Assembly: GCF_004010195.1 (NCBI RefSeq)
Contig: NC_057757.1
Span: 2,102,733-2,122,732, forward strand
Direction: 5' to 3'
Source: Chiloscyllium plagiosum
Lineage: Eukaryota
DNA: 20,000 nucleotides
Position 1 is the stretch's first letter, and every line of letters begins with the position of its first letter. The position numbers and the translations under genes are program-made. Shown here one piece after another: positions 119 to 19,388 of this stretch. The notes below the pieces were generated by a model that made no database searches, had not been told where the DNA came from, and was given only the letters and a program-made list of their open reading frames with translations.

Positions 119-320
119 TCACTTTGAACTACCTCCCAGTGTGCTGGCCTGCGTCGCTGGGCCAGGCTGCTGGGAACAAAGCCACAACTTCATGGAGTTC
201 TCAGCCTTGATGTTGCGGTGGGTCATCAGGATCCCATTGCCCTCGTCCTCGCTCTCGGCAGGCTCCGGGAACTTGCGCTGCCCCGAGGTGGTGGCCAGCA
301 GGTTCATACGTGGGTGTAGG
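119..320 (-). CDS. WRAP53: WRAP53/TCAB1 last coding exon (coding exon 10)
   Basis: (S)LHPRMNLLATTSGQRKFPEPAESEDEG...ENSMKLWLC...* matches the conserved SLHP..LLAT.SGQR.FPEP motif; acceptor ccttctgcag| at 322-321, phase 2; TGA at 121-119. Confidence 0.95.
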
Positions 321-399
321 CTGCAGAAGGGGGAGCAAGCCACAGGGTCAAAGGTTCAACATGTGAGGCAAACAGTAGAATCTTGCTGAGACTGCCAAC

Positions 400-1060
400 T
401 CTTACAATAACACTGTGTGTGTAGAGTGCTTTTCAAACTGTCCTGATTAACGTACTTCACTGGGCGTGTTAAACAAACCGAAACTGAGCCACTTGAGACA
501 ACATCAGGACAGGTGACCAACAGCTTTGTCCAAAAGGTAGGTTTTAAGATGCACCTTAAAGGAGGAAGGAGGTGGAGGGATTTAGGAACAGAAGTCCAGA
601 GCTTACAGCCCAGGTAAATGAAGGATGGCCATCAACGGTGGAGCCACAGAAACAATAGATGTGCAAAATATCAAAAAGAGGAGGGTCAGGGACGTTGGAA
701 GACCTCGAGACTGGAAGAGGTTGTAGAGCTAGGGAGAGTGAGGCCACTAAGGGATTTTAGAACAGCATCAGAACTTTTATAATGGGCTGCCAGGCCGGGA
801 GCAAATGTCGCTCTATGAGATTGTTGGGGAATACGATGGGATGCAAATGAAGAGGTGAACAGTCTCAGGTAAGCTCACAATACATTGGAACAAGTCAAGC
901 CTTAAAGGTATGGATAGGGATTTCAGCTACAGATGAGCTGAGACAGGGAAGAAAATTTGCAGTGTTACTGATGGTGGAAGCTGGCAATTTTGGTTCAGAG
1001 AAAGGGAAGGCATGAGTTTAACTCGGTCAAAAATAAAACACAAGCTTTGGTGGCTCCCTG
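400..1060 (-). mobile_element. Old, degenerate LINE (L2-like) 3' fragment
   Basis: Purine-rich decayed sequence (acaggtgaccaacagctt...gtaggttttaag...ttaaaggagg) resembling the reverse complement of vertebrate L2 3' regions; recognised by eye, boundaries approximate. Confidence 0.4.
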
Positions 1061-1214
1061 GACAGTCTAAATAAATTGCAACCCATCGACCTTGCTCAGG
1101 ATCTTAGCTTCAGATCTTTCTTTTACCCCTGGGCAGGATTGCTGCACACCTCTCTCTGCATCATCACCACACCCCAAAAAAAAATGTTTCTGCTGAGTAA
1201 CCAGTGCAGCTTAC

Positions 1215-1358
1215 CTGATCCCGTTAACACAGTCCTGCTGAGTGTGAAACTGAAGAATGGGATCGAGGATGCAGTCCTTCCCCTCAGTCGGCGTTAGTGT
1301 GGTGTCCCACACAGAAACTGTTCCCTCAGTGTTCCCACTGACTACATAGCGCCCATAA
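1215..1358 (-). CDS. WRAP53: WRAP53 coding exon 9
   Basis: YGRYVVSGNTEGTVSVWDTT...DPILQFHTQQDCVNGI(S), WD40 repeat; ttcctgcacag| acceptor, |gtaagc donor; 144 nt, phase 2/2. Confidence 0.95.
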
Positions 1359-1439
1359 CTGTGCAGGAAGGAAACACCAACATCAATTCTTTGCTCAGCA
1401 AGCTCACCCAAACATTCACACGATATTAGTCAGATTGGC

Positions 1440-1555
1440 CTTGGAGGGTTAGTTAAAGGATAAATATTGGCCAAGACAAAATGGGGACAACTCCCCTGTC
1501 TTGTCTGGAAAGAGCCATGAGAGATTTTGTTTGCATGTCCACATTTAAGAGCATG
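1440..1555 (-). mobile_element. Deu-domain SINE fragment (SacSINE1/AmnSINE-like)
   Basis: ggataaatattggccaagaca..ggggacaactcccctgtctt..aagagccatg is the reverse complement of the Deu core (catggc..gaagagcaggggagtt..tggccaatatttatcc). Confidence 0.5.
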
Positions 1556-2176
1556 GCTAATCAAACTGTACACTGATTTCCACCTTCCTATTTGCCCCCA
1601 GTTACCCCTGAACACACAAGTCAAGAAGCCTCCACCACTCACTAAGGAAAAGAATTTCAAAGAGGGGAAAAGAAACTCATTAGTCTTAAGTGAAAGACTC
1701 CTAATTTTAACATTGTGCCTCCTAGTTTCCCCTAAACGGAGCAAATATCTACCCCATCATCCCTACCCCACCTTCCTCCAAGAATCTTACATGCATCAAG
1801 AAACTACATCTCGTCCTTCTAAATGTCAACACATTTCGACCCAACCTGTTCAAACGTCTACCGTGCAGTGCCCCGGGTTATTTGGAAATGTCAGCACAGA
1901 TCGTGTGTTCACGAATCTGGAATGGAACGCTAGCCAGTTTTATCTGCCAACATTCACCACTGAAAATTGCCATGTTCACATTCAGTGTCGCTGTCAATAG
2001 TCACAATGGACACTAGGAGTCAATCGGGAGCATATCTGTTGGTCCAAATCCCATCCACCCCATCGGTTGACCAGTGGGGCCACAGCACTGGCCATAAACA
2101 CAGTGTTGAAAACTAAACTCCTAATCACTAAACGACCACTAGCAACTCTCCAAGAAAGACTGAAAGGATTACTCAC

Positions 2177-2280
2177 ACATCCAGATCAAAATACATCCTC
2201 TGATTGGTGATCGCTGAGCGGAGCATGGAGAACAGCACTTTGCCAGGCTGGCGTAGATCCCAGCACAGGATTTCGGGATC
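2177..2280 (-). CDS. WRAP53: WRAP53 coding exon 8
   Basis: [34 protein letters not shown](V); not in the ORF track frames shown; tttccctcag| acceptor, |gtgagt donor; 104 nt, phase 0/2. Confidence 0.95.
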
Positions 2281-2699
2281 CTGAGGGAAAGGAGAAAAAA
2301 AAGAGTAGTTTGAAAACAGGCTTTTGGAAATGGAACCGAGTAAACTTCAGGGAGGTGAACCATGAATAAGTAACAGTATTCAGGGAGTCTGGCAGGTCGT
2401 CTGAAAGGATAGAAGTTGGTACCAGAGCACGATATAAAACAGATGGCTCCCCATTCACACCCAGGAACAAAGCACAGTATAGCAAAGGAGATCATTCAGT
2501 CCATAATGCCTATGCTGGCCCTGTGACGCTGCTATCCAATTAACCTCACTCTTTTTTCCCCCAGAGCTTTGCAAAAGCATGGCCTTTTGACATCTCAATC
2601 CAAATTCCTCTTGAAAATTTTGAAAAGTTCGGCTTTCAGATTACAACAATTCGCAGGGTTAATAAAAATTCTCCTTTCTTCCTCTGTTTCAGTAACTCA

Positions 2700-2844
2700 C
2701 GTTGACTGGACAGCTGGCTTGTGGTGTAGTGATGTCAACAGCATGGGTTCAATTTCCAAACTGGTCGAGGTTCGCGTGAAGGACTCTCCTTCTCAACCTC
2801 TCCCCTGAGGTGTGGAGACCCTCAGTTAAACCACCACTAGCCAG
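2700..2844 (+). mobile_element. tRNA-derived SINE 5' part
   Basis: A-box-like tggtgtagtg and B-box-like gggttcaatttcc followed by a SINE-like body; truncated by the CR1 insertion at about 2845. Confidence 0.4.
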
Positions 2845-3457
2845 AATTGAACAGCACAGAAACAGACCCTTTGGCCCAACTTGTACATGCTAACCAGTTT
2901 TCCTAAAGTCATTTAATCCCACTTGCCAGCATTTGGCCTATATCCCTCTATGGAGAATCTGGGGTATAGGGAGAGGTTGAATGGGCTCGGACTGTTTTCC
3001 CTGGAGGGTCGGAGGCTGAGGGGTGACCTCAGAGTTTTATAAAATCAGGAGGGACATGGAGAGGATAAATAGACAAAGTCTTTTCCCTGGGGTGGGGGAG
3101 TCCAGAACTAGAGGGCATAGGTTTAAGGTGAGAGGGGAAAGATATAAAAGAGACCCGAGGGTCAACTTTTTCACGCAGAGGGTGGTCCGTGTATGGAATG
3201 AACTGCCAGAGGAAGTGGTGGAGGCTGTTACAATTGCAACATTTAAAAGCATCTGGATGGGTATATGAATAGGAAGGGTTTGGAGGGATATGGGCCCAGG
3301 TGCTGGCAGGTGGGACTAGATTGGGTTGGGATATCTGGTCAGCATGGACGGGTTGGACCGAAGGGTCTGTTTCCATTCTGTACATCTCTGTGACTCTAAA
3401 CCCTTCCTATTCATGTACTCATCCCGATGCCTTTTAAGTGTTCTAATTGTACTGACC
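2845..3457 (-). mobile_element. CR1-like LINE 3' end, split by a nested insertion (host parts 2845-2950 and 3399-3457)
   Basis: ...tatccctcta (to 2950) rejoins aacccttcctattcatg (from 3399), as in the uninterrupted copy at 7530-7560 (atatccctctaaacctcgcctattcatg). Confidence 0.75.
2951..3398 (+). mobile_element. CR1-like LINE 3' fragment (ORF2 C-terminus and 3' UTR)
   Basis: Encodes ..SRTRGHRFKV..FFTQRVVRVWNELPEEVV..TFK, the typical CR1 ORF2 C-terminus; ends ctctgtgactcta; near-identical to 16478-16904. Confidence 0.9.
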
Positions 3458-4090
3458 TCAAGAGAGAGAGCGAGCTAAAGGGGAGTGAGAGAGTGATGTG
3501 CAGTGACAGTCCTCCCACCATGCTGCATGTAAAGGGTTCACTCACTCTGAGTGACAGAAGGCAATGAGCTAGTCTGAAGGAAACAGGTACAAACAGAGAA
3601 CTGTCTTACTGAGTGCTGTCAATTAACCACCGTCTAAAGCAAACAAGACAAAAGGATTTCAACTCACCTGCAAAGCCAAGAATCCCAAAATTAACTGCCC
3701 AACGATCAATGCTCCACTGTTTACTCTCTATCACTGACCCAGAGACTGTTCCATATAGCTTTTATCTTATCTTGGACTCGCTTTTCATTTCATGTTACTT
3801 TGTATCTTACATTCATATTTATTTTGCAGCTAATAAGCTCAATTTTCTATTAACTCAAGAAAGCGAAATGAGATTGGCTGCTTTTGAAACATTAATTCAT
3901 TTGGTCAGCGAGAAAGACATTCACAAGGGAGCGATCTTTCTAAATTATCCTTGCTCCGACCAACCCGAGGAAGCAGATTAATGAAGGAGGGAGCCAGTTT
4001 ATCCTCCTCCCCTGGAAAGCTACTGCGACATCTGGTCATAACGCTCATACTCAGAGTACCTCCTGGTCCTCTCAAAGACTCCCAGCTTAC

Positions 4091-4299
4091 CTTCCGCCCC
4101 CCAGTGTAAAGCAGGTTTCCATCGGGTGAAAATGTCACGTGTGTCACTCCTCCCTGATGGCCCTGTAAAATGGTGAGCACAGTCCCCCTGTCCCTGGAGT
4201 ACAGTCCCACTGTCTTAGAGTAGGAGGCACAGGCGTACAGGTCATGCTCTGGGCTGAAGGCAATGCACGAGATGATCCCAGTCTGCCCCCGTTTCTTCA
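4091..4299 (-). CDS. WRAP53: WRAP53 coding exon 7
   Basis: (V)[33 protein letters not shown]...[27 protein letters not shown]40 repeats; tctctttccag| acceptor after a (CT)n tract, |gtaagc donor; 209 nt, phase 1/0. Confidence 0.97.
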
Positions 4300-4639
4300 C
4301 TGGAAAGAGAAAAAGAGAGAGAGAGAGAAAGGCCAGTCAGTGGAATTCTGTAGTTTTTCATTGCTGGCTGTTCACTGGAAATTGGGGGAGGGGGGGTGCT
4401 GTTCTGACAACCTTCCCACCAATGCTGACTGCATTCCCTGCACACTGGCGTACCAATCAGCTCTCCCCCCCTCTAGGATCTTGCATCATACCAAGGCTTG
4501 GTGAACCAACTTTATAGAAGGTGCTATGGACCACATGCAAAACAATCGTACAGAACTGAATATAGCCCTTTGGTTGGTCAGTCCTGTGCCAGCTGTTTGA
4601 AAAAAAACTATCCAATTAACTCTGTTCTCTTGCCCCAGG

Positions 4640-5027
4640 AGCAACAGAGGCTGAGGGGTGACCTTAGAGATTTATTAGGTCATGAGGGGCATGGATAGGG
4701 TAAATAGTCAACATCTTTTCCTTGGGGTGGGGGAGTACAGCACTAGTAGGCATAGGTTCAGGGTGAGAGAGGAAAGATATAAAAGGGATCTAAGGGGCAA
4801 CTTTTTCACATAGAGGGTGCTGTGTGTATGGAATGAGCTGCCAAAGGAAGTGGTGGAGGCTGGTACATTTAAGCATTTAAAAGGCATCTAGATGGGTATA
4901 TGAATAGGAAGGGTTTAGAAGGATATGGGCCAAGCACTGGCAAACGGGACTAGATCAGGTTAAGATATCTGGTTGGCATGGACGAATTGGAGTGAAGGGT
5001 CTGTTTCCATGCTGTACATCTGACTCT
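4640..5027 (+). mobile_element. CR1-like LINE 3' fragment
   Basis: Same family as 2951-3398 (gaggctgaggggtgacctt...ggaatgagctgcca...gaagggtctgtttcc). Confidence 0.85.
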
Positions 5028-5049
5028 TCAAATAACCATTTGCTCCTGC

Positions 5050-5225
5050 TTAAGAAGCCAAGGATTCTGAGATCCCCATGATTTCTCGAAGGTCATTACA
5101 ACTCCAACCAGACAGTATCTATGAAGGTACAATGCTCCGTCAGTAATGGACTGGAAGTGTCACCCTGGATTTTGTGCCTACGGAGCGGAACATTAATCTA
5201 CAACTTGCAGACTTGGAGAACTGAA
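5050..5225 (-). mobile_element. Degenerate SacSINE1-like SINE 5' part
   Basis: ctccgtcagtaatggactggaagtgtcaccctggattttgtgc resembles the reverse complement of the gcacaaaaatccagg.tgaca..cagt.ctgagg segment at 13748-13789. Confidence 0.4.
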
Positions 5226-5294
5226 TTCAAGATGTACTGGTATTGGAAGCAGTCCAAAGACGGTTCACTAAATGATACCTGCTCTGGAGGGACT

Positions 5295-5690
5295 GTCTTG
5301 TGAAGAGAGGTTGAGTAGATTGGGTCTGTACTCCTTGGAATAATGAGGAATGAGAAGAAACCTTATTGAAACATTCAAGATTCTTAGGAGACTTGACAAA
5401 ATAGATGTGGTGAGGCTGTTTCCCCTTGCGGGAGAATCGAGGACCAGAACAGAAAATCTCAGAATAAAGGGTGCTTACACATTTAAAACAGAAATCAGGA
5501 GGAATTTATTTAATTTTAAAACTAACATTCTTTATCTGTTAAGGATGGGTCACTAAGTATAATCAAGGCTGAGGAAATCAAGGGATATCAGGAAAAGGCA
5601 AGAAAACAGAGTCGATGGTTAGATCATGATCTCACTGAATGGCAGAGCGGACATATATGGGCTAAATGGCCTGCTTCTATGCTTATGGAT
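5295..5690 (+). mobile_element. Older CR1-like LINE 3' fragment
   Basis: MRRNLIETFKILRRLDKIDVVRLFPLAGESRTR, CR1 ORF2 C-terminus, decayed. Confidence 0.75.
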
Positions 5691-5891
5691 GTGATGGTCA
5701 AACAAAAAGGAACTCAAAGTCAATTGTGGGCAAGACCAGAGGGAGCAGTAAGTTTCAGCCCCACGGAATTAAATAGAACGATGGATCAAAGTAATTCCAA
5801 ACTGACTCAACAACAAACTGATAAATGATCCTTCTAATCAATAAACCCTAATTCCCTCAGACCAGTTCTGAAAGAAAGCAGTCAGGCATAC

Positions 5892-6024
5892 CCAGGGTTG
5901 GTCTCTTCTCACACTCTCGGCCTGGACGAGATACGTCGAACACCCTCACCATCTTGTCAAAGCCACAGAACAGCTGATTCCCATCGGGTGTGAAACAGAG
6001 CGAGTGAGCAGACGTCAGCTCATC
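5892..6024 (-). CDS. WRAP53: WRAP53 coding exon 6
   Basis: [44 protein letters not shown]; ttgcag| acceptor, |gtatgc donor; 133 nt, phase 0/1. Confidence 0.97.
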
Positions 6025-6546
6025 CTGCAAGCAGAACATTCAAACAAACTCTACAGCCCAATTGGCAATGGCAGTTACCTCTACTGGTTGACATGCTATA
6101 CATCCTCTGAGTATCAGATATATTCCACTGTCCCTTGATTACCTCCCACCTTCCATCACTTCAAATTCATCCAAAACCCTTACTCCTAATGCATTCGGTT
6201 CCATTCATTCATCACCGCAGTTCTCGACCCCTCTGATATCTTCACACTCCTACAACTCTGGGCTCTTGCACATCGTGATATCTTTTCCTTCAGCTAATCT
6301 AAATTCTGGAAATTGACTCGCTAAACTGCTCTGCTTCTCTCTTTCACAAGAACCCTTCCCTTAAAATGTAGGTTTTAAATTAAGCTTTTGCCCCAATTCT
6401 CCTCAATATCATGTTGCCATATTTTGTTATGATATCAATCAAGTGCATCATGTAACCATAACAGAAAGTGATACCTTTTGAGTGTACGCCACCTCTCATG
6501 TGTACCTGGGGGCCACTCTCTCGTAATCAACCAACTGTAAATATTA

Positions 6547-6828
6547 ACACAAAATCAGAAATTGCTGGAAAAGCTCAGCAGGTCTGGCAGCATCTGCAGA
6601 GAGAAATCAGTTAGCACTTTAGGTCAAGTGACCCTTCTTCAGAATCTGTTTTTATTTAGTATTTAACTCACTGCCGCATCTCTTCCAGGCATGCTAGGTC
6701 TGAGGAAGGATCCAAAACGTTAACTCAGATTTCTCTTCACAGATGCTGCCAGACCTGCTGAGGTTTTCCAGCAATTTCTGTTTTCGCTTCTGATTCACAG
6801 CATCTGCAATTCTTTCGGTTTTTTATCT
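6547..6828. mobile_element. Non-autonomous Penelope-type mini-element: inverted repeat with degenerate hammerhead motifs and 11-bp TSD
   Basis: TGTAAATATTA direct repeat at 6536-6546 and 6829-6839; arms about 6556-6642 (-) and 6700-6780 (+) are reverse complements; each begins with CTGA(A/G)GA. Confidence 0.75.
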
Positions 6829-7083
6829 TGTAAATATTAGCTATCCCATTACATGAGGAATCACACAGGAATGTGACCCGCAGAGCACACTGAGTCAGCA
6901 GCTGGTCACTGGTTATAATCGGGGCTGCTTGTGCCCTCAAACTTCAACTTCAACCCTTGCACAGAATTAGAACAGCAACTCAGCAACATCACACACAACT
7001 CCATGTCCTAGGATTCCACCTGTTAAAGCTGCTGGATGTACTTGGTGGAGAAAGTTAGAAGGTTAAAGCCACCTGGGACTTAC

Positions 7084-7174
7084 CAGGTGATTGTACGGCC
7101 GGAACGTGGCCCGTAGGTCCCCGTAGAAAGCGTCCCAGATGTGAATCGGGTTGTCGCGGCTGCTGCTGGCCAGA
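7084..7174 (-). CDS. WRAP53: WRAP53 coding exon 5
   Basis: [30 protein letters not shown]; ttgcag| acceptor, |gtaagt donor; 91 nt, phase 2/0. Confidence 0.97.
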
Positions 7175-7434
7175 CTGCAAAAGGAATGGCAACAGTACAG
7201 AGTTCAGAAGCCATGCTCTGACCCACTGTCTCACCTCACATTTTAGTAGTTAGAGTGGATTCACAAGGACAAAGAAACTGGCTAACAAACTAAACACGGC
7301 TGAGGTGCCGCGTGGGTATGTAAAAAGCAATGCTTTCGTATAAAGCCAACTAATAAGAAACCCACAAGTACTGGAATTGTGTACAGCACACAATGCCAAC
7401 ATGGCCCAGGAGGCCACCATTCAGCCCACCAAAG

Positions 7435-7697
7435 AGTCATATATCATGCAAACAGGCCCCTAGTTCAATTTGTCCATACCAACCAAATTTTCCAAACTAA
7501 ACTAGTCCCATCTGCCCGCACTTGGCCCATATCCCTCTAAACCTCGCCTATTCATGAACTTACCTAAATGCCTTTTAAATTTTGTAACTGTACCTGCATC
7601 CACCATTTCCTCTGCTAGTTCATTCCACACACTAACCACTCTGTAAAATAAAGTTGTCCCCATGTCTGTTTTTAATGTCTCTTCTCTCACCTTAATC
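7435..7697 (-). mobile_element. CR1-like LINE 3' fragment
   Basis: Minus-strand ORF ..FYRVVSVWNELAEEMVDAGTVTKFKRHLGKFMNRRGLEGYG. Confidence 0.85.
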
Positions 7698-8400
7698 CTC
7701 CAACTATTTGCCCAATTTCCTTCTGAAGGCAAATTTTGACAGCATATTACAAATTGTTCAATTTTTCTCCCCTGGCCCAAATCTGTCACCTTTGGTTTTC
7801 GACCAAACTGCTATATAAACGAAAAAGAACTCTGGGCTCTGGCCTCCTGAGCAGGGTTACATATTGGGATTGAGCCCCCAATCAGTGACTGCTATCATGG
7901 AGCTTGGACTAATTTCCGATAGCAAACGAGATATTTTGGTTATGCGATGTGTTTTGTTTTGAACAGACAAAAGATAATTCATTAGGAAATAGAACTGGAC
8001 AGCTACCTGCAATGTAAAAATCTCCAGGGCTGTGAAGAATGGAGGAATTGGACTGCTCTTTCAAAGGGCCAGCACAGGCACAATGGGCCGAGTGGTCTCC
8101 TTCTGTGCCATAAGTTCGCAGATTAAATAACTTTTCTCATTGCAGGAGAAACCAGTCACTTGTTTCAGTCATTCATGGTCCTTTTGCGACTGCGACATTT
8201 TATCACTCAAGGAGAACATGAATCTTTTGCCCACCTAACTATGGACCAATGAAATTGCTTGTATCAAAAGTTGCACGCTCCTGCGATGTTGATAGTGGAT
8301 TAAGCACAGCAGGTAGTATGTGAGGGACCCTTAAATCCAAACATCAAAATACAATAACATTCCTGTTGTGGTTCTGTTCGCCGAGCTGGGAATTTGTGTT

Positions 8401-8440
8401 GCAGACATTTCGTCCCCTGTCTAGGTGACATCCTCAGTGC
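8401..8440 (-). ncRNA. Minimal type I hammerhead ribozyme motif (Penelope pLTR), WRAP53 sense strand
   Basis: Minus strand: gca-CTGAGGA-t-GTCaCCT-agac-AGGgGAC-GAAA-tGTC-tgc; both core boxes, helix II, GUC triplet and 3-bp helix I (gca/tgc). Confidence 0.7.
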
Positions 8441-9646
8441 TTGGGAGCCTCCTGTGAAGCGCTTCTGTGATATTTCCTCCGGTGTTTATAGTGGTCTGTC
8501 CCTGCCGCTTCCGGTTGTCAGTTCCAGCTGTCTGTTGCAGTGGTCGGTATATTGGGCCCAGGTCGATGTGCTTATTGATTGAATCTGTGGATGAGAGCCA
8601 TGCATCTAGGAATTCCCTGTCTGTTCTCTGTTTGGCTTGTCCTATAATAGTAGTGTTGTCCCAGTCGAATTCATGTTGCTTGTTGTCTGCGTGTGTGACT
8701 ACTAAGGATAGCTGGTGGTGTTCATGGATGCGGATCGTTAGCTGTCTTCCTGTTTGTTCTATGTAGTGTTTTGTGCAGTCCTTGCATGGGATTTTGTACA
8801 CTACATTGGTTTTGCTCATGCTGGATATCGGGTCCATCGTTCTGGTGAGTTGTTGTCTGAGAGTGGCTGTTGGTTTGTGTGCTGTTATGAGTCCTAGTGG
8901 TCGCAGTAGTCTGGCTGTCAGTTCGGAAATGCTCTTGATGTATGGTAGTGTGGCTAGTCCTTTGGGTTGCGGCATGTCCTCGTTCCGTTGTCTTTCCCTT
9001 AGGCATCTGTTCATGAAATTGTATTTGCCAAAAACGGATACCCGCGCAATTTCATCAACAGATGCAAAGGGAAAGACAACGGAACGAGGACATGCCGCAA
9101 CCCAAAGGACTAGCCACACTACCATACATCAACAGCATTTCCGAACTGACAGCCAGACTACTGCGACCACTAGGACTCATAACAGCACATAAACCAACAG
9201 CCACTCTCAGACAACAACTCACCAGAACGATGGACCCGATATCCAGCATGAGGAAAACCAATGTAGTGTACAAAATCCCATGCAAGGACTGCACAAAACA
9301 CTATATAGAACAAACAGGAAGACAGCTAACGATCCGCATCCATGAACGCCAACTAGCTACGAAACGACACGACCAGATAGCCTTAGTAGCCACACACTCA
9401 GATGACAAGCAACATGAATTCGACTGGGACAACACTACTATTATAGACAAGCCAAACAGAGAACAGCCAGGGAATTCCTAGATGCATGGCACTCATCCAC
9501 AGATTCAATCAATAAGCACATCGACCTGGACCCAATATACCGACCACTGCAACAGACAGCTGGAACTGATAACAGGAAGCGGCAGATTCAAGCCACTATA
9601 AATGCCAGAGGAAACATCACAGAAGTGCTTCACAGGAGGCTCCCAA

Positions 9647-9686
9647 ACACTGAGGATGTCACCTAGACAGGGGACGAAACGTCTAC
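9647..9686 (+). ncRNA. Minimal type I hammerhead ribozyme motif (second copy)
   Basis: aca-CTGAGGA(9650-9656)-t-GTCaCCTagacAGGgGAC-GAAA(9676-9679)-CGTC-tac; core intact with palindromic ACGT, helix I mismatched. Confidence 0.65.
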
Positions 9687-9782
9687 AACACAAATTCCCA
9701 GCTCGGCGAACAGAACCACAACAACGAGCACCCGAGCTACAAATCTTCTCACAAACTTTGAACAATAACATTCTGCACTTAC

Positions 9783-9871
9783 AAACAGGTCTCAGGAGCC
9801 ATCGATGACATGATTGGGTACCAGCAATAATCGTATATGGTATCTCCCTCAGACATACGCAAGACAGCACT
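9783..9871 (-). CDS. WRAP53: WRAP53 coding exon 4
   Basis: [29 protein letters not shown](F); aatttgcag| acceptor, |gtaagt donor; 89 nt, phase 0/2. Confidence 0.96.
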
Positions 9872-10299
9872 CTGCAAATTTATCCACAAGAGGTAAGATC
9901 AATAGCAAAGGAACCAAAGGGGAGATGAGAACTTAGCTTATTTTTTAGAAAATTGTTTTGATTTGTTGAGGTGTGGAATGCACAGAGGAAGGTTTAACAT
10001 AGCTTTAAAAAAATGGAATTGGATCAATACTTTAAAGGAAAAATGTTGCAAGGGCAGTGAACAGGGAGAGAGTGGAACTAATCAGAATACTCTTTCAGGT
10101 ACAATGGATCAAAAGACAAGTTACTTTTCATAGCTCCTTTGATATTCTAAACTGCCCCACAAGTATATTATCAAGCCAGATTTGACATCCATGTATGGAG
10201 ATATTACAAAAGGTTGGTTAAAAAGATAGGTTTTAAGGAATACTTTAGTAAAGGAGAAAGTCATTGAAAAGATTACCACTGAGCAAGTATGCAACCCGA

Positions 10300-10885
10300 C
10301 TAGCTGTATAGATATTGTGGCTATAAAAGGTCACAAGATGGGAATTCTGCAATGACTAATTGACCTCCTAACTCCAAAAAGCCTATCCACTATCTAAAGG
10401 AGTGTGAAGGAATACTCCCTGCTAGCTTGGAAAGGTGCAGCTCCAACAACATAAGAAGCTTGACACCAATCAACCGAGTTGATTAGCACCACATCTAACT
10501 ACCTCAATCTTCACATCCTCCACTAGCGACGCTCAGTAGCAGCAACGTGTGCCATTGACAAGACGCATTGCTGCAACTTGTCAACCCTTCTTCGAGCACC
10601 TCTTCCAAAACCATGACACCAACCATCTCAAAGGACAAGGGCAGCAGATGAACTGGAATGACAATCACCAGCAGCCAGTCTCCCTCCAACCCACACATCA
10701 ATCTGACTTTGAACCTCCTTCACTGCTTTTGAGCCAAATTCCTGAAATCCCCTGTTTGACTGTACTGTGCACATACCTACAGCTTAAGGACTCCTGCAGT
10801 TCAAGGCAGCTCTCCACAACCTTCTCAAAGAGTAATCGGGGTGGGCAATAAATGCTGGACTAACCAGAAATGCCTACATCATGAA
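10300..10885 (+). mobile_element. Degenerate LINE 3' region (CR1/L2-type, HER1-like tail)
   Basis: Decayed ORF2-like sequence (tccactatcta..gtgtgaaggaatactcc..gcagctccaacaaca..aagcttgacacc) ending in gggcaataaatgctggactaaccagaaatgcctacatc. Confidence 0.55.
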
Positions 10886-11773
10886 GAAAATAGTTTTCAG
10901 GAAAAACTGCCATGTATTTTTATTCACATAAAAGATGAGCAGGAATCTGGTCACTTGAATCTACTCTGCTATTCAATGTGACCATGGTCGATTAACTCCC
11001 TCCACACCACTTTCTCCTCAGCTCAGTCTGAAATTACAGCTTCTTGTGCCCTCCTCTTTTGGAGTGCTAGCCTCTCAGCGCTCCCAGCCAAGCCTTCTGG
11101 AAATATTTTAAATGCATCAAATGAGAAACCCCACTACATAAACTTTCTACAGTTAAAACAGGGGAGTGCCTCATAGCATCCAAAAAAAACACTTGCCTCA
11201 CTGGCAGAAACAACTCTACTTATTCAAGAGCTTGAGTACATTGGTTGCAGGAATGAGAGATGACGATTAAAATTCAGAAGCATTGCAGGCAGCCTGGTTT
11301 GGCATCTTCAATTCCTAAATGTACCATGGAGCACCTAGCACCACATAAATCTAGCAATTTTCATATGTCTTGAATGGGAATAGTCATCTCCCAAAGCTCC
11401 TGTATTAGGGGCTGTGCTGGGAATCCCACCAAAATGCATCTATAACGCACAATGACAATCCCTTATTTAAGGTGACAGGACCTTTCTACAGTAATCCAAG
11501 ATAATACCTACAGTTTAGAGCTGGCACAAATGCACACGTTATAAACAAGTTGGAAAAAGGACATCGGAATTTGTCGGGCTCATGACATTCAACCGTGATC
11601 AAATAACTCAGAGATAAAGACGCACTGAGGGCTGGAATTAAACCCCACTCTGACAGGAAGTGGTTATGCTTCAGAAGGGCAAGACATTTGGGATTGGTGT
11701 GAGATCTCGTTTTTGCAAATCCCTCTCACTGTAAACACCGAGAGCAGTGCAAGCGGGTCAAAGAAATAGATAC

Positions 11774-11882
11774 CATTTCTGAGAGGTCAGCCAACTCCCC
11801 GCTATACAGCTCAGAAGGGAGGTTAAAGATCCGCAGTGTATTGTCAGCACTGTTGGTCAGAATGCAAGAACCATCCGGTGCC
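11774..11882 (-). CDS. WRAP53: WRAP53 coding exon 3
   Basis: (W)[36 protein letters not shown]; tatctcag| acceptor, |gtatct donor; 109 nt, phase 2/0. Confidence 0.96.
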
Positions 11883-12099
11883 CTGAGATAAAACACATGA
11901 CAAGTCAGTAAAAGAAAAGGTGCTTCTACTCACCGCGATTCACAGCAAAACAAACTTGGGAAATGAGCCACTTAGACAAGCTCATTCAAGTGAAAGAACA
12001 TAAAAATCAATCTGCTTTATGAGCTACAGTAACCATTGCTGTGTGATGCCATCAACTGTTCTGAACTGTACCAATGGAGTATCTTAACTTTCGACAATC

Positions 12100-12380
12100 A
12101 AGAGTTGATTTGATCTCTGTACTGTTATAAGGCAGACAGGGTGAAACTATTTCTGCTGGTTGGGGAGTCTGGGGTTAGAGGGCAAAGTTAAAAAACTAGT
12201 GCCAGCCCTTTCAGGAGTGAACTTCAACACAAAGAGCTATTGATGTCTGGAACTCCCATCTACAAGCAGCAACTGGTGCTGGATCAATTGTTAATTTTAA
12301 CTCTGAGATTGACAGATTTTTGTTAACCAGAGGCGCTGATATAAAGATACGGGGGCAAAGGGGGGTAACATGGAGTTTGA
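12100..12380 (+). mobile_element. Old CR1-like LINE 3' fragment
   Basis: ctatttctgctggttggggagtct...tctggaactccc...ttttaactctgagattgacagatttttg. Confidence 0.55.
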
Positions 12381-12827
12381 ACACAGGGCAGCATGATCTC
12401 ACCAGATCGCAGAATACGCCAAGGAATTCACTGGCCTCTTACTGTACCCGGGTGTCTCAGGGTTCCAGAGGAGATCAGCCTAGCCTGCTGGCATACAGCA
12501 AGCACAGAATTCTCACTGCTAAATTCCAAACCAACCCACTGGGGAGGATGTGCAAAAGACCACTGGAGTGGAGGACTACAGAGCCCAAGAGTTGTATAGG
12601 GCTTGTGAAACTTACAGGGAGAGGCACCTGACACCAATAGACACAGCTCTCCACTCAAGCCACAAACAAGGTGCGAGCCACAGGGAATCTGGGATAATAT
12701 CATTTGGCCAATGACTGTTGCTGGACTGACAGCCCCCAAATTAGCTGATCACTGTTAACAACAGGCAAGTCCAGGGAGGAGAACAAAATCTGTACAGATT
12801 CTGGATATGAACAGAAAAGCAAACAAT

Positions 12828-13190
12828 CAGAGTCATAGTGCCCAGAAACAGACCCTTCGATCCAACTAGCCCATGCTGACCATGTTCCCAAATTAAACTA
12901 GTCTCACTTGCCAGTGTTTGTCTCATATCCCTCCAAACCTTGCCTATTCATGAACTTATCCAAATGTCTTTTAAACATTTTAACTGTACCTGCATCCACC
13001 ATCTCCTCCGGTAGTTCATTGCACATAAGAACAACCCTCTGTATAAAAACATTGTCCCTCATGTTCTTTTTAAAACTTTCTCCTCTCACCATAAAAATAT
13101 ATCCCTTAGTTCTGAACTCTCCCATGCCAGGGAAAAGACCCCTGACATTCACCTTATCTAAGCCCCTCATGATTTTATAAACCTCAATAG
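12828..13190 (-). mobile_element. CR1-like LINE 3' fragment
   Basis: Minus-strand ORF MRGLDKVNVRGLFP..FIQRVVLMCNELPEEMVDAGTVKMFKRHLDKFMN; tail (ctatgactct) at about 12829-12838. Confidence 0.88.
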
Positions 13191-13340
13191 GTTATGGGTC
13201 AGGAAAAGATCAAAACTCCCCCTAAAATCAGATAAGTCTCACCCCGTCTTTACACAAGACTGTGATTTCTTAACTTTTTTATGCCTTTTATTTGAGAAAC
13301 TTCCAAGACTTTTCCAGGTTTTCCTGCACCCTGCACTCAC

Positions 13341-13439
13341 CATTTACAGCCCTTCAGGAAGTTTTCCACTGTTCTTGAGTACTCCTTCCACGCACCTGAG
13401 AGAAGGTGAGGTGCTTGGGTGAAATCATATCCGATCTGA
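13341..13439 (-). CDS. WRAP53: WRAP53 coding exon 2
   Basis: (Y)[32 protein letters not shown](W), conserved NFLKGCKW motif; gcttttcag| acceptor, |gtgagt donor; 99 nt, phase 2/2. Confidence 0.95.
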
Positions 13440-13694
13440 CTGAAAAGCAGCAGAAAGTGCAGACACATCAGAACTATAGGGTAATTAGCAGCGTATGGGT
13501 AAAGCACTGCGGACAATGTAACCCCTGCCAGTCAGTGTAAGCACGTGAAGTGCAGTGAAGTCTGGTGGCAGGGTTGAGAGTGCGCCTGTGAAAAACAGAA
13601 ACACCAACCAGTACCATTCTGGATTGTACTGAGTGACTATGTTCTCTGGAAAGAGCATTACGATACTAGGGGAGTACTGAGTATTGTCATCAGC

Positions 13695-14075
13695 TGTGGC
13701 TTTACCTTCTGAGTCAGACAGTCACAGGTTTCCATCGGGGGGCATGAGCACAAAAATCCAGGTGACAGTGTCTGTGCCAGTGCTGAGGAAGGTGCTGCAA
13801 CTGCTGTATTCCAGAGGAGACATCAAACCAAAGCCCTGTCTGCCCTTTCAGGTGGGCCTAGACAGTCCCAATGAAAGGCCACAATTTGAGAGCTCTCCCC
13901 AGTGTCCCTGGGCCGACAATAAAGCAGATCAACTGGCCTTTATCAAATTGCTGTTTGTAGGAACTTATGCACAAGTTGTAGTTTGTGCTTACAGCACTTC
14001 TTACGTTGCAAGAAGGGTCTACACTTCAGAAGACTACCTGTAAAGCTAGGGCATGAGAGGGGCTACAAAAATATA
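13695..14075 (+). mobile_element. SacSINE1-like Deu-domain SINE, degenerate
   Basis: tctgagtcaga..gagcacaaaaatccagg..aaaccaaagccctgtctgccctttcaggtgg..tctccccagtgtccctgggcc..ttgctgtttgtagga..ctacacttcagaag. Confidence 0.65.
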
Positions 14076-14329
14076 GTTCAAGGCTGCAGTTCACCATCAC
14101 CTGAAGGGTACATACAGACAGGCAGTCAGGCAGTCAATGTTAGCTTTGCCAGCAACACACACATTCTTTGAACGAAAGTGAAGTCCTTCAATAGAAAGGA
14201 AAAAAAGTCAAAATTTATAACTCCAGACAATATCCAGTCTCTTCCACTGGAATCGAAACAACAATTGGTGCCATGGGCTACAGGGGCTGTTTTATGACGA
14301 GCAGCCTACATTTCTGCGGTGTGGTAAAA

Positions 14330-14685
14330 CAAGAGGTGATCTCATTGAGATCTACAAGGTTTTAAATGGATTTGACAGAATATGCGCGAGGAGATCATTT
14401 CTGCTGGTTGGGGAACCTAAAAGATGAAGGACACAACGTCTGGTTAAGGGAATGATCATTTAGGACTGAGATGAGAGGAAACATCTTCACTCAGAGTAGG
14501 ATGAACTTTTGGAATTCTCTTCTCAAGAGGGTTGTGGCTGTTTCATCATTGGATATATTGAAGGCTGGGATTGATGGATTTTTGGTGTCTCAGGGAATCA
14601 GGCAGGAAAGCCAAAGGTAGATCACTGGCGATAATTTTACTGAAAGCATAGGCAGGACTACTCCTGAACTTTTTTGTGTTCTTAA
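14330..14685 (+). mobile_element. Old CR1-like LINE 3' fragment
   Basis: agaggtgatctcattgag..ttcttcactcagag-like..tttggaattctct..aaggctgggattgatggatt. Confidence 0.65.
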
Positions 14686-14780
14686 ATTTCATGGACAAAC
14701 CATTTCACACATGAAATGGTCTATCATGGAGAGGTTTGCCAATGCATTCAGAATTGTACAACTGATGTGGAGTTACTTAC

Positions 14781-15241
14781 TAATAAACGCCTTCGCTGCA
14801 CTGCTCTGCCCAGCTCTCACTTGCTTGCTCGGTCTCCGTTTCACTCTTGCCATTTGCATCTGGCTCCAGTGGATCAGGAAGACATTCAGATTCATGCCCT
14901 CCACTCATCTTCTCTGCCAGTTTGAGCAACTCAGAGCCTGAGTCGCCTGAAGGGCTGTCCAGGTTAGAGACCATAGAAGGGTCAGAGGCCTTTGGAGGGT
15001 CAGAGGTTGGCAGGACATCACTCCCTTCCAAACTTTCAGCTGAGTTCGCAGCTAGAGGCAGTGGTAAATCACCGATTCCGACCCGGGCAACCTTGGCCAG
15101 GGGCTCACTGTCTCCTCCACCTCGCCTCTCAGAGTCACTGGCCTGTTCCGCCAGCCCAGGCTGATCGGTCAGGGGATCCACTGCACTGTCGCCCTCTTGG
15201 GCTGATTCCACGCCAGGCTCCGCCATCCAGTCCGTCGCCAT
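14781..15241 (-). CDS. WRAP53: WRAP53 first coding exon (acidic, Ser-rich disordered N-terminus)
   Basis: aaagccATGG strong Kozak at 15241 with an in-frame TAG upstream; 461 nt open; ends TA|gtaagt, and phase 2 matches the next exon. Assigned by position and phase rather than homology. Confidence 0.8.
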
Positions 15242-15519
15242 GGCTTTCACAACAGTCAGATACCTTCGGTGCTACACGGGTAGCGCTTTTTAAAGTTTCT
15301 CGTACGGTGCCTGGCAGCTGGGCGCTGGCACACTGTGGAGGCCTTGTGACGGAGCGCTGTATTCATCACAACAGCCAATGGTGCTGTGGGAATGAGATCC
15401 GAATGTCACAAACGCTGCTGAAAACAATGTAAAGTTCGGAATTAGAGAACACATTTGCATATACAAACAGCTAAAAGGTCAAAACTGCTCCCAACCTAGC
15501 GACTAAATATGAAGTCAGA

Positions 15520-15850
15520 TAAAATCATCTGAGGTATTGATAAGGTGAACATCTTTACCCTAGGGTGGGGGAGTTCAAAACTAGAGGGCATTGGTTTAAG
15601 GCGAGAGGGAAAAGATTTAAAAGCAATCAGAGGGGAAACATTTTCCGCACAGAAGGTGGTGCATATACGGAATGAACTGCCAGTGGAAATGGTAGATGCA
15701 GATACAGTTACAACGTTTCAAAGACAGTTAAACAGGTAGATGAATGGGAAAGGGATGTGGGCCAAATGTTTAGAGGGATGTGGGCCAAACAAGAGCAAAT
15801 GGGATTGTTTAGTTTGGGAAAACTGGTCAACTTGGGTGATTTGGGCCAGA
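15520..15850 (+). mobile_element. CR1-like LINE 3' fragment
   Basis: ..FSAQKVVHIRNELPVEMVDADTVTTFQRQLNR. Confidence 0.8.
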
Positions 15851-15980: not shown

Positions 15981-16904
15981 GTAAGTAAGTTTGCAGATGA
16001 CATCAAAATTGGAGGTGTAGTGGACAATGAAAAAGGCTACCTCAGATTACAATGGGATCATGATCAGATGGGCCCACGAGCTGAGAAGTGTTGGATGGAG
16101 TTTAAATTAGATAAATGCAAGGTGCTGCATTTGGGGAAGCAAATCTTAGCAGGACTTATACACTTAATGGTAAGGTCCTAGGGAGTGTTGCTGAACAGAA
16201 ACCTTGGAGTGCATGTTCATAGCTCCTTGAAAGTAGAGCTGCAGGTAGATAGGATAGTGAAGGTGGTGTTTGGTATATTTTTCTTTATTGGTCAGAATAT
16301 TGCATACAGGAGTGGGGAGGTCATGTTGCAACTGTACAGGACATTGGTTAGGTCACTTTTGGAATATTATGTGCAATTCTGGTCTCCTTCCTATCGGAAG
16401 GATGTTGTGAAGCTTAAAAGGGCTCAGAAAAGATTTACAAGGATGTTGCCAGAGTTGGAGGATTTGAGCTATGGGGGAGGTTGAATAGGCTAGGGCTGTT
16501 TTCCCTGGAGCGTCGGAGGCTGAGGGGTGACCTTATAGAGGTTTATAAAATCATGAGGGCATGGATAGGATAAATAGACACGTTCTTTTCCCTGGGGTGG
16601 GGGGAGATCAGAACTACAGGGCATAGGTTTAGGGTGAGAGGGGCAAGATATAAAAGAGACCCAAGGGGCAACGTTTTCACACAGAGGGTGGTGTATGTGT
16701 GCAATGAGCTTCCAGAGGAAGTGGTAGAGGAAGGTACAATTGCAACATTTAAAAGGCATCTGGATGGGTATATGAATAGAAAGGGTTTGGAGGGATGTGG
16801 GCTGGGTGCCGACAGGTGGGACTAGATTGGGTTGGGATATCTAGTCAGCGCGGACAAGTTGGACCGAAGGGTCTGTTTCCGTGCTGTATATCTCTATGAC
16901 TCTA
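15981..16904 (+). mobile_element. 5'-truncated CR1-like LINE (RT C-terminal half to 3' end), frameshifted
   Basis: Starts at the RT motif aagtttgcagatgac (KFADD); LYRTLVRSLLEYYVQFWSP..RAQKRFTRM; FTQRVV..NELPEEVV; ends tctctatgactcta. Confidence 0.92.
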
Positions 16905-19030: not shown

Positions 19031-19279
19031 TTCTTAAAACCCCTGAAGCTCACGATTGGGTGGGTTCCTTGAAACCCCAGATAGTGAGGGAGGGTTTGCC
19101 CTGAAGCCCAAGATTAAGGGAGGGGCCTCTTGGAACCCTATATAATGGGGGGCTGCCTTGAAACCCCAGATATGTCGTGGGAGTGGGGGTGTCCTGAAGC
19201 CGAAGATTGGGGGTCCTTGAAACACCAGATAGTGAGGGGGCTACCCTGAAGCCCAAGGAGAGAGGGGATTCCTTGAAAC
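19031..19279. repeat. Degenerate minisatellite with about 26-33-bp subunits of two alternating types
   Basis: Alternating ccttgaaaccccagatagtgaggg.. and ccctgaagcccaagatt..gggg units. Confidence 0.75.
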
Positions 19280-19388
19280 GGCAGGTGCGGGTTGAGGTAC
19301 ACAGTCTCCGGAGCCCTGGGAGGCGCTGAGTGACCTGCCTGTGCAGGTGAGTGGTGGGAGGGGTGGGGGGAACGGGTCGATCAGTCAC

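Follow-up and report, generated by a model that had tools for sequence, protein, structure and literature searches.

The insertion of a Penelope-like element (PLE) at positions 8351..9773 of the 20,000-nucleotide (nt) stretch of Chiloscyllium plagiosum DNA analysed here (the window) raises the question of how a palindromic unit, with the same 3' region of an element present twice in opposite orientations, is formed. The origin of tandem and inverted Penelope structures is treated as unresolved in the passages of PMC8557442 that concern them, which describe an inverted 5'-truncated copy adjoining the 5' end and a tail that is often present at one end only. The corresponding passages of PMC3846280 report inverted repeats with a 31-bp tail and 8–10-bp duplications, and those of PMC2377424 report large inverted repeats of varying size for the Penelope element of D. 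virilis. An earlier note on this DNA had described the palindrome and proposed that it arose by fold-back or template switching during integration. Here we compare its two arms with each other, with related proteins and with family copies in public sequencing runs.

Structure of the Insertion

We hold it as very nearly certain that the locus 8351..9773 is one old, dead insertion consisting of two 5'-truncated 3' ends of the Penelope/Poseidon type, which lie head to head in an intron of the gene WRAP53. Local alignment of the reverse complement of the left part against the right part gives arms of 8364–9021 (minus strand) and 9047–9723 (plus strand), exactly the limits in the earlier note, and a repeat finder returns the same three segments. 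The estimate of about 31 substitutions was likewise accurate, there being exactly 31 in 656 aligned columns (18 transitions and 13 transversions; a divergence in the range of 4.0–4.7%), and the 21-bp deletion and two 1-bp indels that had been counted are located in the left arm and in the right arm, respectively, where the two 1-bp deletions break the reading frame. The left arm is tail-less and ends at the inner of two end points that are shared by family copies (see below).

The separator between the arms has the 25 nt ascribed to it but is not a foreign spacer, since this segment (9022..9046, plus strand) is element sequence and forms an extra 5' part of the right copy. Positions 9021–9065 match residues 249–263 of the family protein P0008 at 93%, and the loop continues the frame of the right copy upstream. 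A 2-nt microhomology (TG, 9020..9021) at the head-to-head joint is common to both copies, with the right copy in frame from 9021, and the unit thus comprises a 658-nt copy and a copy of about 740 nt which are joined 5' to 5' with 2 bases in common. A 38-nt tail (9724..9761, plus strand) is found on the right arm only, as had been reported, and has no counterpart on the left, where a single extra C (8363, plus strand) lies between the duplication and the arm.

The repeat ACAATAACATTC, which was described as a 12-bp target-site duplication, does flank the whole unit, and its only occurrences in the window are at 8351–8362 and 9762–9773 on the plus strand (chance of 1.1e-7 per position from base composition). 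Its exact length is 11–12 bp, because family copies end at 9762 and the first A of the right repeat may therefore belong to the element. One duplication surrounds the whole unit and neither arm is flanked separately, which bears out the claim of a single insertion event. The empty site, reconstructed in silico, is A+T-rich (69% versus 55% across the window), and no further copies of the element were found elsewhere in the window.

Coding Remnant and 3' Module

The assignment of the unit to Penelope is upheld by the match of both arms to proteins with a reverse transcriptase (RT) and a GIY-YIG endonuclease over the whole endonuclease region. A GIY-YIG profile match is a different matter, in that Pfam has no match on the arms themselves, although they align to proteins bearing this domain; 6 of the 7 open reading frames (ORFs) of the window, both arms included, gave 0 Pfam families, and a PDB sequence search with the left arm gave a single chance match (E 1.7). 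The left arm retains an open ORF-end remnant (8421..9020, minus strand) that covers the end of the RT thumb, the linker, the GIY-YIG region, the C-terminus and the stop. It has 199 open codons, 7 codons are missing, and a start of its own is absent within the element. Its closest relatives are predicted shark proteins (62–95%) and 4939 proteins in a 50%-clustered library, and among 10 relatives scanned with Pfam (E up to 0.01, several under the curated cut-off) RVT_1 was present in 8 and GIY-YIG in 6. The arms span residues 249/256–463 of the 463-aa P0008, up to its C-terminus, at 83–88% identity. The RT core is absent from the truncated unit, and P0008 bears RVT_1 upstream (E 3e-6, under the Pfam cut-off). 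Residues 17–158 of the left arm align with 590–743 of P0103 (E 7e-20), in which Pfam places GIY-YIG at 648–687, and residues C79, C82, H101 and H110 are conserved in a 20-row alignment. The earlier note had seen special meaning in an inverted part that includes the whole endonuclease; the region is indeed present, but published inverted repeats vary in size.

Both arms have Glu in place of the glycine of the YIG motif. Gly occupies this position in 93 of the 97 relatives that match the motif (157 examined), and the G19A mutant of the Anolis protein, which shows no cleavage in the relevant passages of PMC11167929, would by analogy correspond to the residue changed here. In the arms and in P0008 alike, the segment from the thumb-end Cys to the CxxC of the endonuclease contains no additional Cys. 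The linkers of Neptune and Nematis are described as having an extra Cys motif (PMC8557442, in its passages on linkers), and we therefore place the element with Penelope/Poseidon; with domain order and the linker as its sole basis, this clade label is a putative one.

A hammerhead-like motif follows the stop codon in both arms. A descriptor scan locates minimal-hammerhead-like motifs at 8404..8437 (minus strand, in the sense orientation in the host pre-mRNA and inside the predicted hairpin) and at 9650..9683 (plus strand, core intact, with two changes in helix I), and it gives 3 matches in the window against a mean of 0.1 in 30 shuffles. The motifs share with the minimal hammerheads of metazoan PLEs, as far as these are characterized in the passages seen of PMC4209133, the CUGANGA and GAAA boxes, a long helix II, a short helix I and no stable helix III. 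The pairs on opposite strands mentioned there lie 100–700 bp apart, whereas the pair here is 1.2 kb apart, decayed and without an Rfam match. Rfam returned no hammerhead on the unit and nothing at gathering score; at E up to 10 it gave only microRNA-precursor models, all under the cut-off and explained by the hairpin, and the minimum-energy fold of the motif region differs from the hammerhead fold. On these sequence data the boxes are a motif rather than a demonstrated ribozyme.

The first 35 codons of the element ORF (9656..9761, plus strand), a permuted end typical of a pseudo-LTR, begin with an ATG located where hammerhead stem II starts; positions 9656–9760 match residues 2–41 of the 832-aa full-length homolog P0035 (17/40 identical, E 4e-4). 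Counted from this ATG, the tail-less end lies at +68 and the tail end at +106, and the inferred cut is 28 nt away from its A. A predicted stem with an A/C-rich loop (9700..9738, plus strand; z −2.4, with 2 of 200 shuffles folding equally well) contains the tail-less end point 9723/9724. A module with the following features in common is described for PAc, the Poseidon element of Anolis carolinensis, in the available text of PMC11167929: an ATG where hammerhead stem II starts, a tail delimited by two end points, an A/C-rich stem-loop, an A+T-rich target with ATT and a cut 26 nt from the A of the ATG. The main start in PAc is at 111–118, as against +68 and +106 here, the two being compared by description.

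Family Copies and Their Variants

Four public runs from two species (X1, X5, X13 and X21) were aligned to 8975–10300, which corresponds to the right copy and its right flank. Depth is 1e5 to 4e6 over the element and 5–200 on the flank in three contig sets; these values do not count copies, yet they plainly point to a very high abundance of the family in both species. Loose ends accumulate at 9723–9725 and at 9760–9762 and are followed by mixed A+T-rich flanks (24 of 1847 records listed). The records at these two places number 122 and 163 in X1, 85+82 and 135 in X13, and 24+44 and 27+53 in X21, and among the records listed for X5 only the outer pile is seen. Since family copies end at the same two places, both ends of the unit are intrinsic element ends. 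Metagenome and viral contigs contained no match to a 26-letter pattern taken from the end of the element.

Contigs that join the tail to the right flank are present in X1 (9749–10300) and X13 (9738–10025), and none of the contigs listed spans the centre joint or the whole unit. The joint 9021/9022, whose recurrence in many copies would mark a non-autonomous (MITE-like) palindromic family that moves as a unit, is likewise absent from the 15 joints listed of 127, which lie elsewhere; 3 of these 15, listed without orientation, change strand at other loci, their offsets being 93, 146 and 272 nt with not a letter in common, and a joint from 9015 to 9255 is head to head about 200 nt apart in element coordinates. 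Inversion offsets thus vary widely within the family. The contig 9738–10025 is from the second species and carries 24 element letters ahead of the duplication, where the rule of the tool is 31, and the palindrome is likely present in that species. Its flank has 7 listed differing letters in 446; set against an arm divergence of 4.0–4.7%, this makes the insertion look two to three times older than the species split.

Two features emerge when the arms are compared with the family variants. The first is that 9231T, 9242T and 9309A are found in both arms, although another letter occupies these positions in 90–99.7% of the family depth in each of the 4 runs. The third of these rare letters is the one that changes the YIG glycine to glutamate. 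Because all three are shared, the inner parts of the arms should derive from one template, from one rare lineage or from later conversion. The second feature is a block (9586..9592, plus strand) in which 5 arm differences fall within 7 nt, a clustering reached by 2 of 3000 permutations, and for which both states exist in the family. The left state is the loose-end consensus in X5 (16 contigs) and X21 (16 reads). The right state encodes Ile, as do P0009 and P0011 (2 of the 6 shark proteins that reach it); Arg is found in P0007, P0008, P0010, P0280 and P0281, and Met in P0002. The upstream Gly of both arms is also seen in both Ile proteins and in the Met protein, and the QQT of the arms occurs in a single protein, which is of the Ile type. 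These comparisons, made with eight proteins of one related species, weakly suggest that the left arm is the mosaic one. The right-arm block state (9583–9591) repeats a 9-mer of 9501–9509, 82 nt upstream, and a slip of the template over this short distance may be the origin of the variant.

The differences number 16 in 493 inner columns and 15 in 163 outer columns, the boundary having been picked after the data were seen; the best inner/outer split has a p of 0.16 when the block is counted once. The innermost 299 columns contain 6 differences against 25 in the other 357 (best-split permutation p 0.03). Among right-arm letters with data, 6 of 9 outer ones stand at about 8–75% of family depth and 5 of 7 inner ones mostly under 5–15%, where contig depth is a rough proxy for allele share and 40 of 182 difference rows are listed. 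The arms also differ at the inner position 9304, for which both letters are common in three of the four runs. Private differences outside family-variant sites amount to about 3% inside and outside alike (small numbers), and a later arm-to-arm homogenising of the inner part is not established (p 0.16 with the block as one event).

Genomic Setting

The surrounding exons on the minus strand match shark telomerase Cajal body protein 1 (P0216), and the unit lies in a GT-AG intron of WRAP53/TCAB1 of 2608 nt (7175..9782, minus strand), the upstream exon of which ends at 9783. The donor GTAAGT (9782–9777) is intact and splicing of 9783 to 7174 reproduces the protein. Within the intron, the right copy of the duplication lies at +10 to +21, the stem begins at +60, and the unit makes up 54% of the intron and is predicted to form a single pre-mRNA hairpin of −1269 kcal/mol. 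In X21, an RNA run of which 2% was read, neither the unique flank nor the exon received any reads. The whole WRAP53/TCAB1 coding region is contained in the window (122–15241, minus strand, about ten exons), and its first coding exon is 100% identical to P0216 over 153 aa. Upstream of this exon is a loose array (19061–19284) of 20–29-nt G+C-rich repeats at a spacing of 28–61 nt.

Shark gene predictions include isoforms of NT5DC1, of MAP3K7 and of a gene without a name (P0009, P0011, P0002, P0005 and P0007) that end in the endonuclease region of the element, and these predictions suggest that the family offers splice acceptors. The same endonuclease-region sequence is present in the left arm, in the sense orientation, in the WRAP53 intron.

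A second palindromic unit of the same anatomy and of another family, 304 bp in length (6536–6839), is found in the next WRAP53 intron. It has an 11-bp flanking repeat (6536–6546 and 6829–6839), arms at about 6552–6643 and 6699–6784 with some 55 nt between them, a tail of about 44 nt on the right only, and decayed hammerhead-like boxes at its inner ends; Rfam gave two weak unrelated matches on it. A third hammerhead-like motif (19835–19760, minus strand), with a short downstream segment resembling the arm of this small palindrome, is probably a solo Penelope end stub. Another repeat is present in at least six copies that are 65–85% identical and in both orientations (2842–3459, 4627–5028, 7430–7699, 12829–13189, 15519–15844 and 16182–16898); the copies presumably represent 3' ends of CR1-type LINEs, which they resemble, and Pfam had no match on the two that were searched.

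Formation of the Palindrome

The account that we favour, to which we would give slightly less than an even chance, is that RNA priming occurred at both ends of the target and was combined in one event with fold-back copying of the inner part. The duplication, the pair of family end points and the variant block are accounted for by priming at both ends, and the 25-nt loop, the microhomology and the rare letters common to the arms by fold-back. The proposal of fold-back or template switching is sustained by these last three features; it accounts for the joint, but fold-back by itself leaves out the family-wide left end point and the variant block.

Four steps would be involved. The endonuclease would nick both strands of an A+T-rich site 11–12 nt apart, as the observed duplication indicates; on either strand of the duplication, ATT precedes the inferred nick by 1–2 nt, which resembles the ATT cleavage preference described for Anolis Poseidon in the relevant part of PMC11167929. 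Each free 3' end would then prime RT on element RNA, starting on the right at the outer point (+106, with the tail) and on the left at the inner point (+68, tail-less). According to the same part of PMC11167929, the Anolis Poseidon protein cuts and extends both target strands, and RT begins at two neighbouring sites on the RNA, which delimit the tail. The right cDNA, of about 740 nt, would stop, fold back through 2 paired bases with a loop of 25 nt and be extended, such that the inner ~500 nt of the left arm were copied from the right, consistent with the geometry and the rare letters observed. This fold-back strand would finally meet a shorter left cDNA, made from a second RNA of another family variant, which would supply the outer ~140–160 nt of the left arm and with it the left state of the block. 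If the shared letters predate the insertion, the YIG motif was already changed in the template, which would probably have been mobilized in trans. A pairing of only two bases would prime fold-back weakly, and it is absent from the DNA fold predicted for that end; furthermore, a small subfamily, and not one molecule, could be what the three rare letters mark. The analysis covers one locus and treats the family variants site by site, and one locus cannot separate our combined account from either of the following two.

One of these, which we regard as rather unlikely, is that one cDNA simply copied itself by fold-back, that the endonuclease cut or halted the copy at the edge of the tail, and that the block was acquired by later short gene conversion from another genomic copy. 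One RNA would then account for the loop, the microhomology and the shared rare letters, and so abundant a family can provide conversion donors; moreover, an origin of the tail from endonuclease resolution is proposed in the pertinent passages of PMC8557442, and self-priming at head-to-head joints is favoured in those of PMC3846280. This account, however, requires a second, later event for the block, and the tail-less end, at which family copies stop whatever the flank, is an in vitro RT start in the text seen of PMC11167929.

The other is that two arm-length cDNAs, one per target strand, were joined by microhomology, the likeness of the inner parts being due to one rare RNA lineage or to later conversion. 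Both end points and the variant block are directly explained in this manner, and the low divergence of the innermost 299 columns (p 0.03) and the offsets of other joints, near 100–270 nt, also favour it. Independent stops at most 25 nt apart are nevertheless seldom expected, and private differences of about 3% in inner and outer parts show no sign of later homogenising; we consider it unlikely that the palindrome was formed in this way.

A further suggestion concerns the fate of the unit and not its origin, viz. that the hairpin was retained for a function (intron shortening, editing or WRAP53 transcript retention). The position 10 nt into the intron, the stem at +60, the large share of the intron, the predicted stability and the apparent presence in two species speak for it. 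Against it, the 31 mismatches include equal numbers that are tolerated as G-U pairs, 9 for the transcribed and 9 for the opposite strand, and hence give no sign of selection for RNA pairing; the decay includes a 21-bp deletion; and the small palindrome in the next intron indicates that units of such type are common. Nothing tested supports a function, which we consider very improbable, and the 660-bp pre-mRNA hairpin is most probably a passenger that has been tolerated.

If copies of different subfamilies had inserted independently, a later one at the 5' end of an earlier one, the arms would likewise differ in a block with both family states, but a single duplication surrounds the unit with none per arm and three rare letters are shared, so that this highly improbable reading is already largely refuted. 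The chance of an assembly or library fold-back artefact is close to negligible: no contig listed spans the centre joint or the whole unit, but 31 substitutions and 3 indels separate the arms, many of them matching family variants, a target duplication surrounds the unit, and the X1 and X13 contigs link the tail to the right flank.

Relation to Known Systems and Implications

The palindrome layout, the one-sided tail and the target duplication are already published features of PLEs. The passages of PMC8557442, PMC3846280 and PMC2377424 on endonuclease-positive PLEs show the same 5' truncation, the same inverted 5'-truncated copy at the 5' end with a head-to-head joint, a 30–40-bp tail at one end, a short target duplication, and a terminal repeat with the first ORF codons. 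The present unit differs from those in that both arms are cut near the same point, so that the unit is palindromic throughout and has neither a complete ORF nor a direct repeat. Those passages contain no comparison of two arm sequences, and the available text of PMC11167929 gives no account of inverted copies. Our search of the literature, made on listings of mainly openly accessible papers, found nothing on arm mosaics, on the templates of two arms or on this shark family. What is new here is the combination of shared inner rare letters with an outer variant block that differs between the arms.

In the twin priming of LINE-1, both target strands prime on the RNA, the products are joined by microhomology and an inversion results within one target duplication. 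There, an upstream part of one RNA is inverted but stays single, whereas the palindrome described here contains the same 3' region twice.

The palindrome is structurally ordinary for PLEs, and its value is that of a worked example for the formation of tandem and inverted Penelope structures. A near-perfect inverted repeat of 660 bp with a 25-nt loop has persisted 60 nt from the donor of a telomerase/Cajal-body gene, apparently through a species split. The variants of the family allow each arm of a palindrome to be traced to its template, and fold-back and double priming can therefore be tested computationally on a single shark assembly. It is conceivable, although we think it somewhat less probable than its opposite, that palindromic Penelope insertions are hybrids of two RNAs, in which a dimeric enzyme primes both target strands at the two start sites of the RNA, a long cDNA folds back and so produces the inner part of the mirror arm, and a short cDNA from a second RNA supplies its outer part. 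If this were true, the arm mosaics of sharks, whose genomes contain a great many copies of such type, would constitute a fossil record that settles the origin of both the inverted structures and the one-sided tail.
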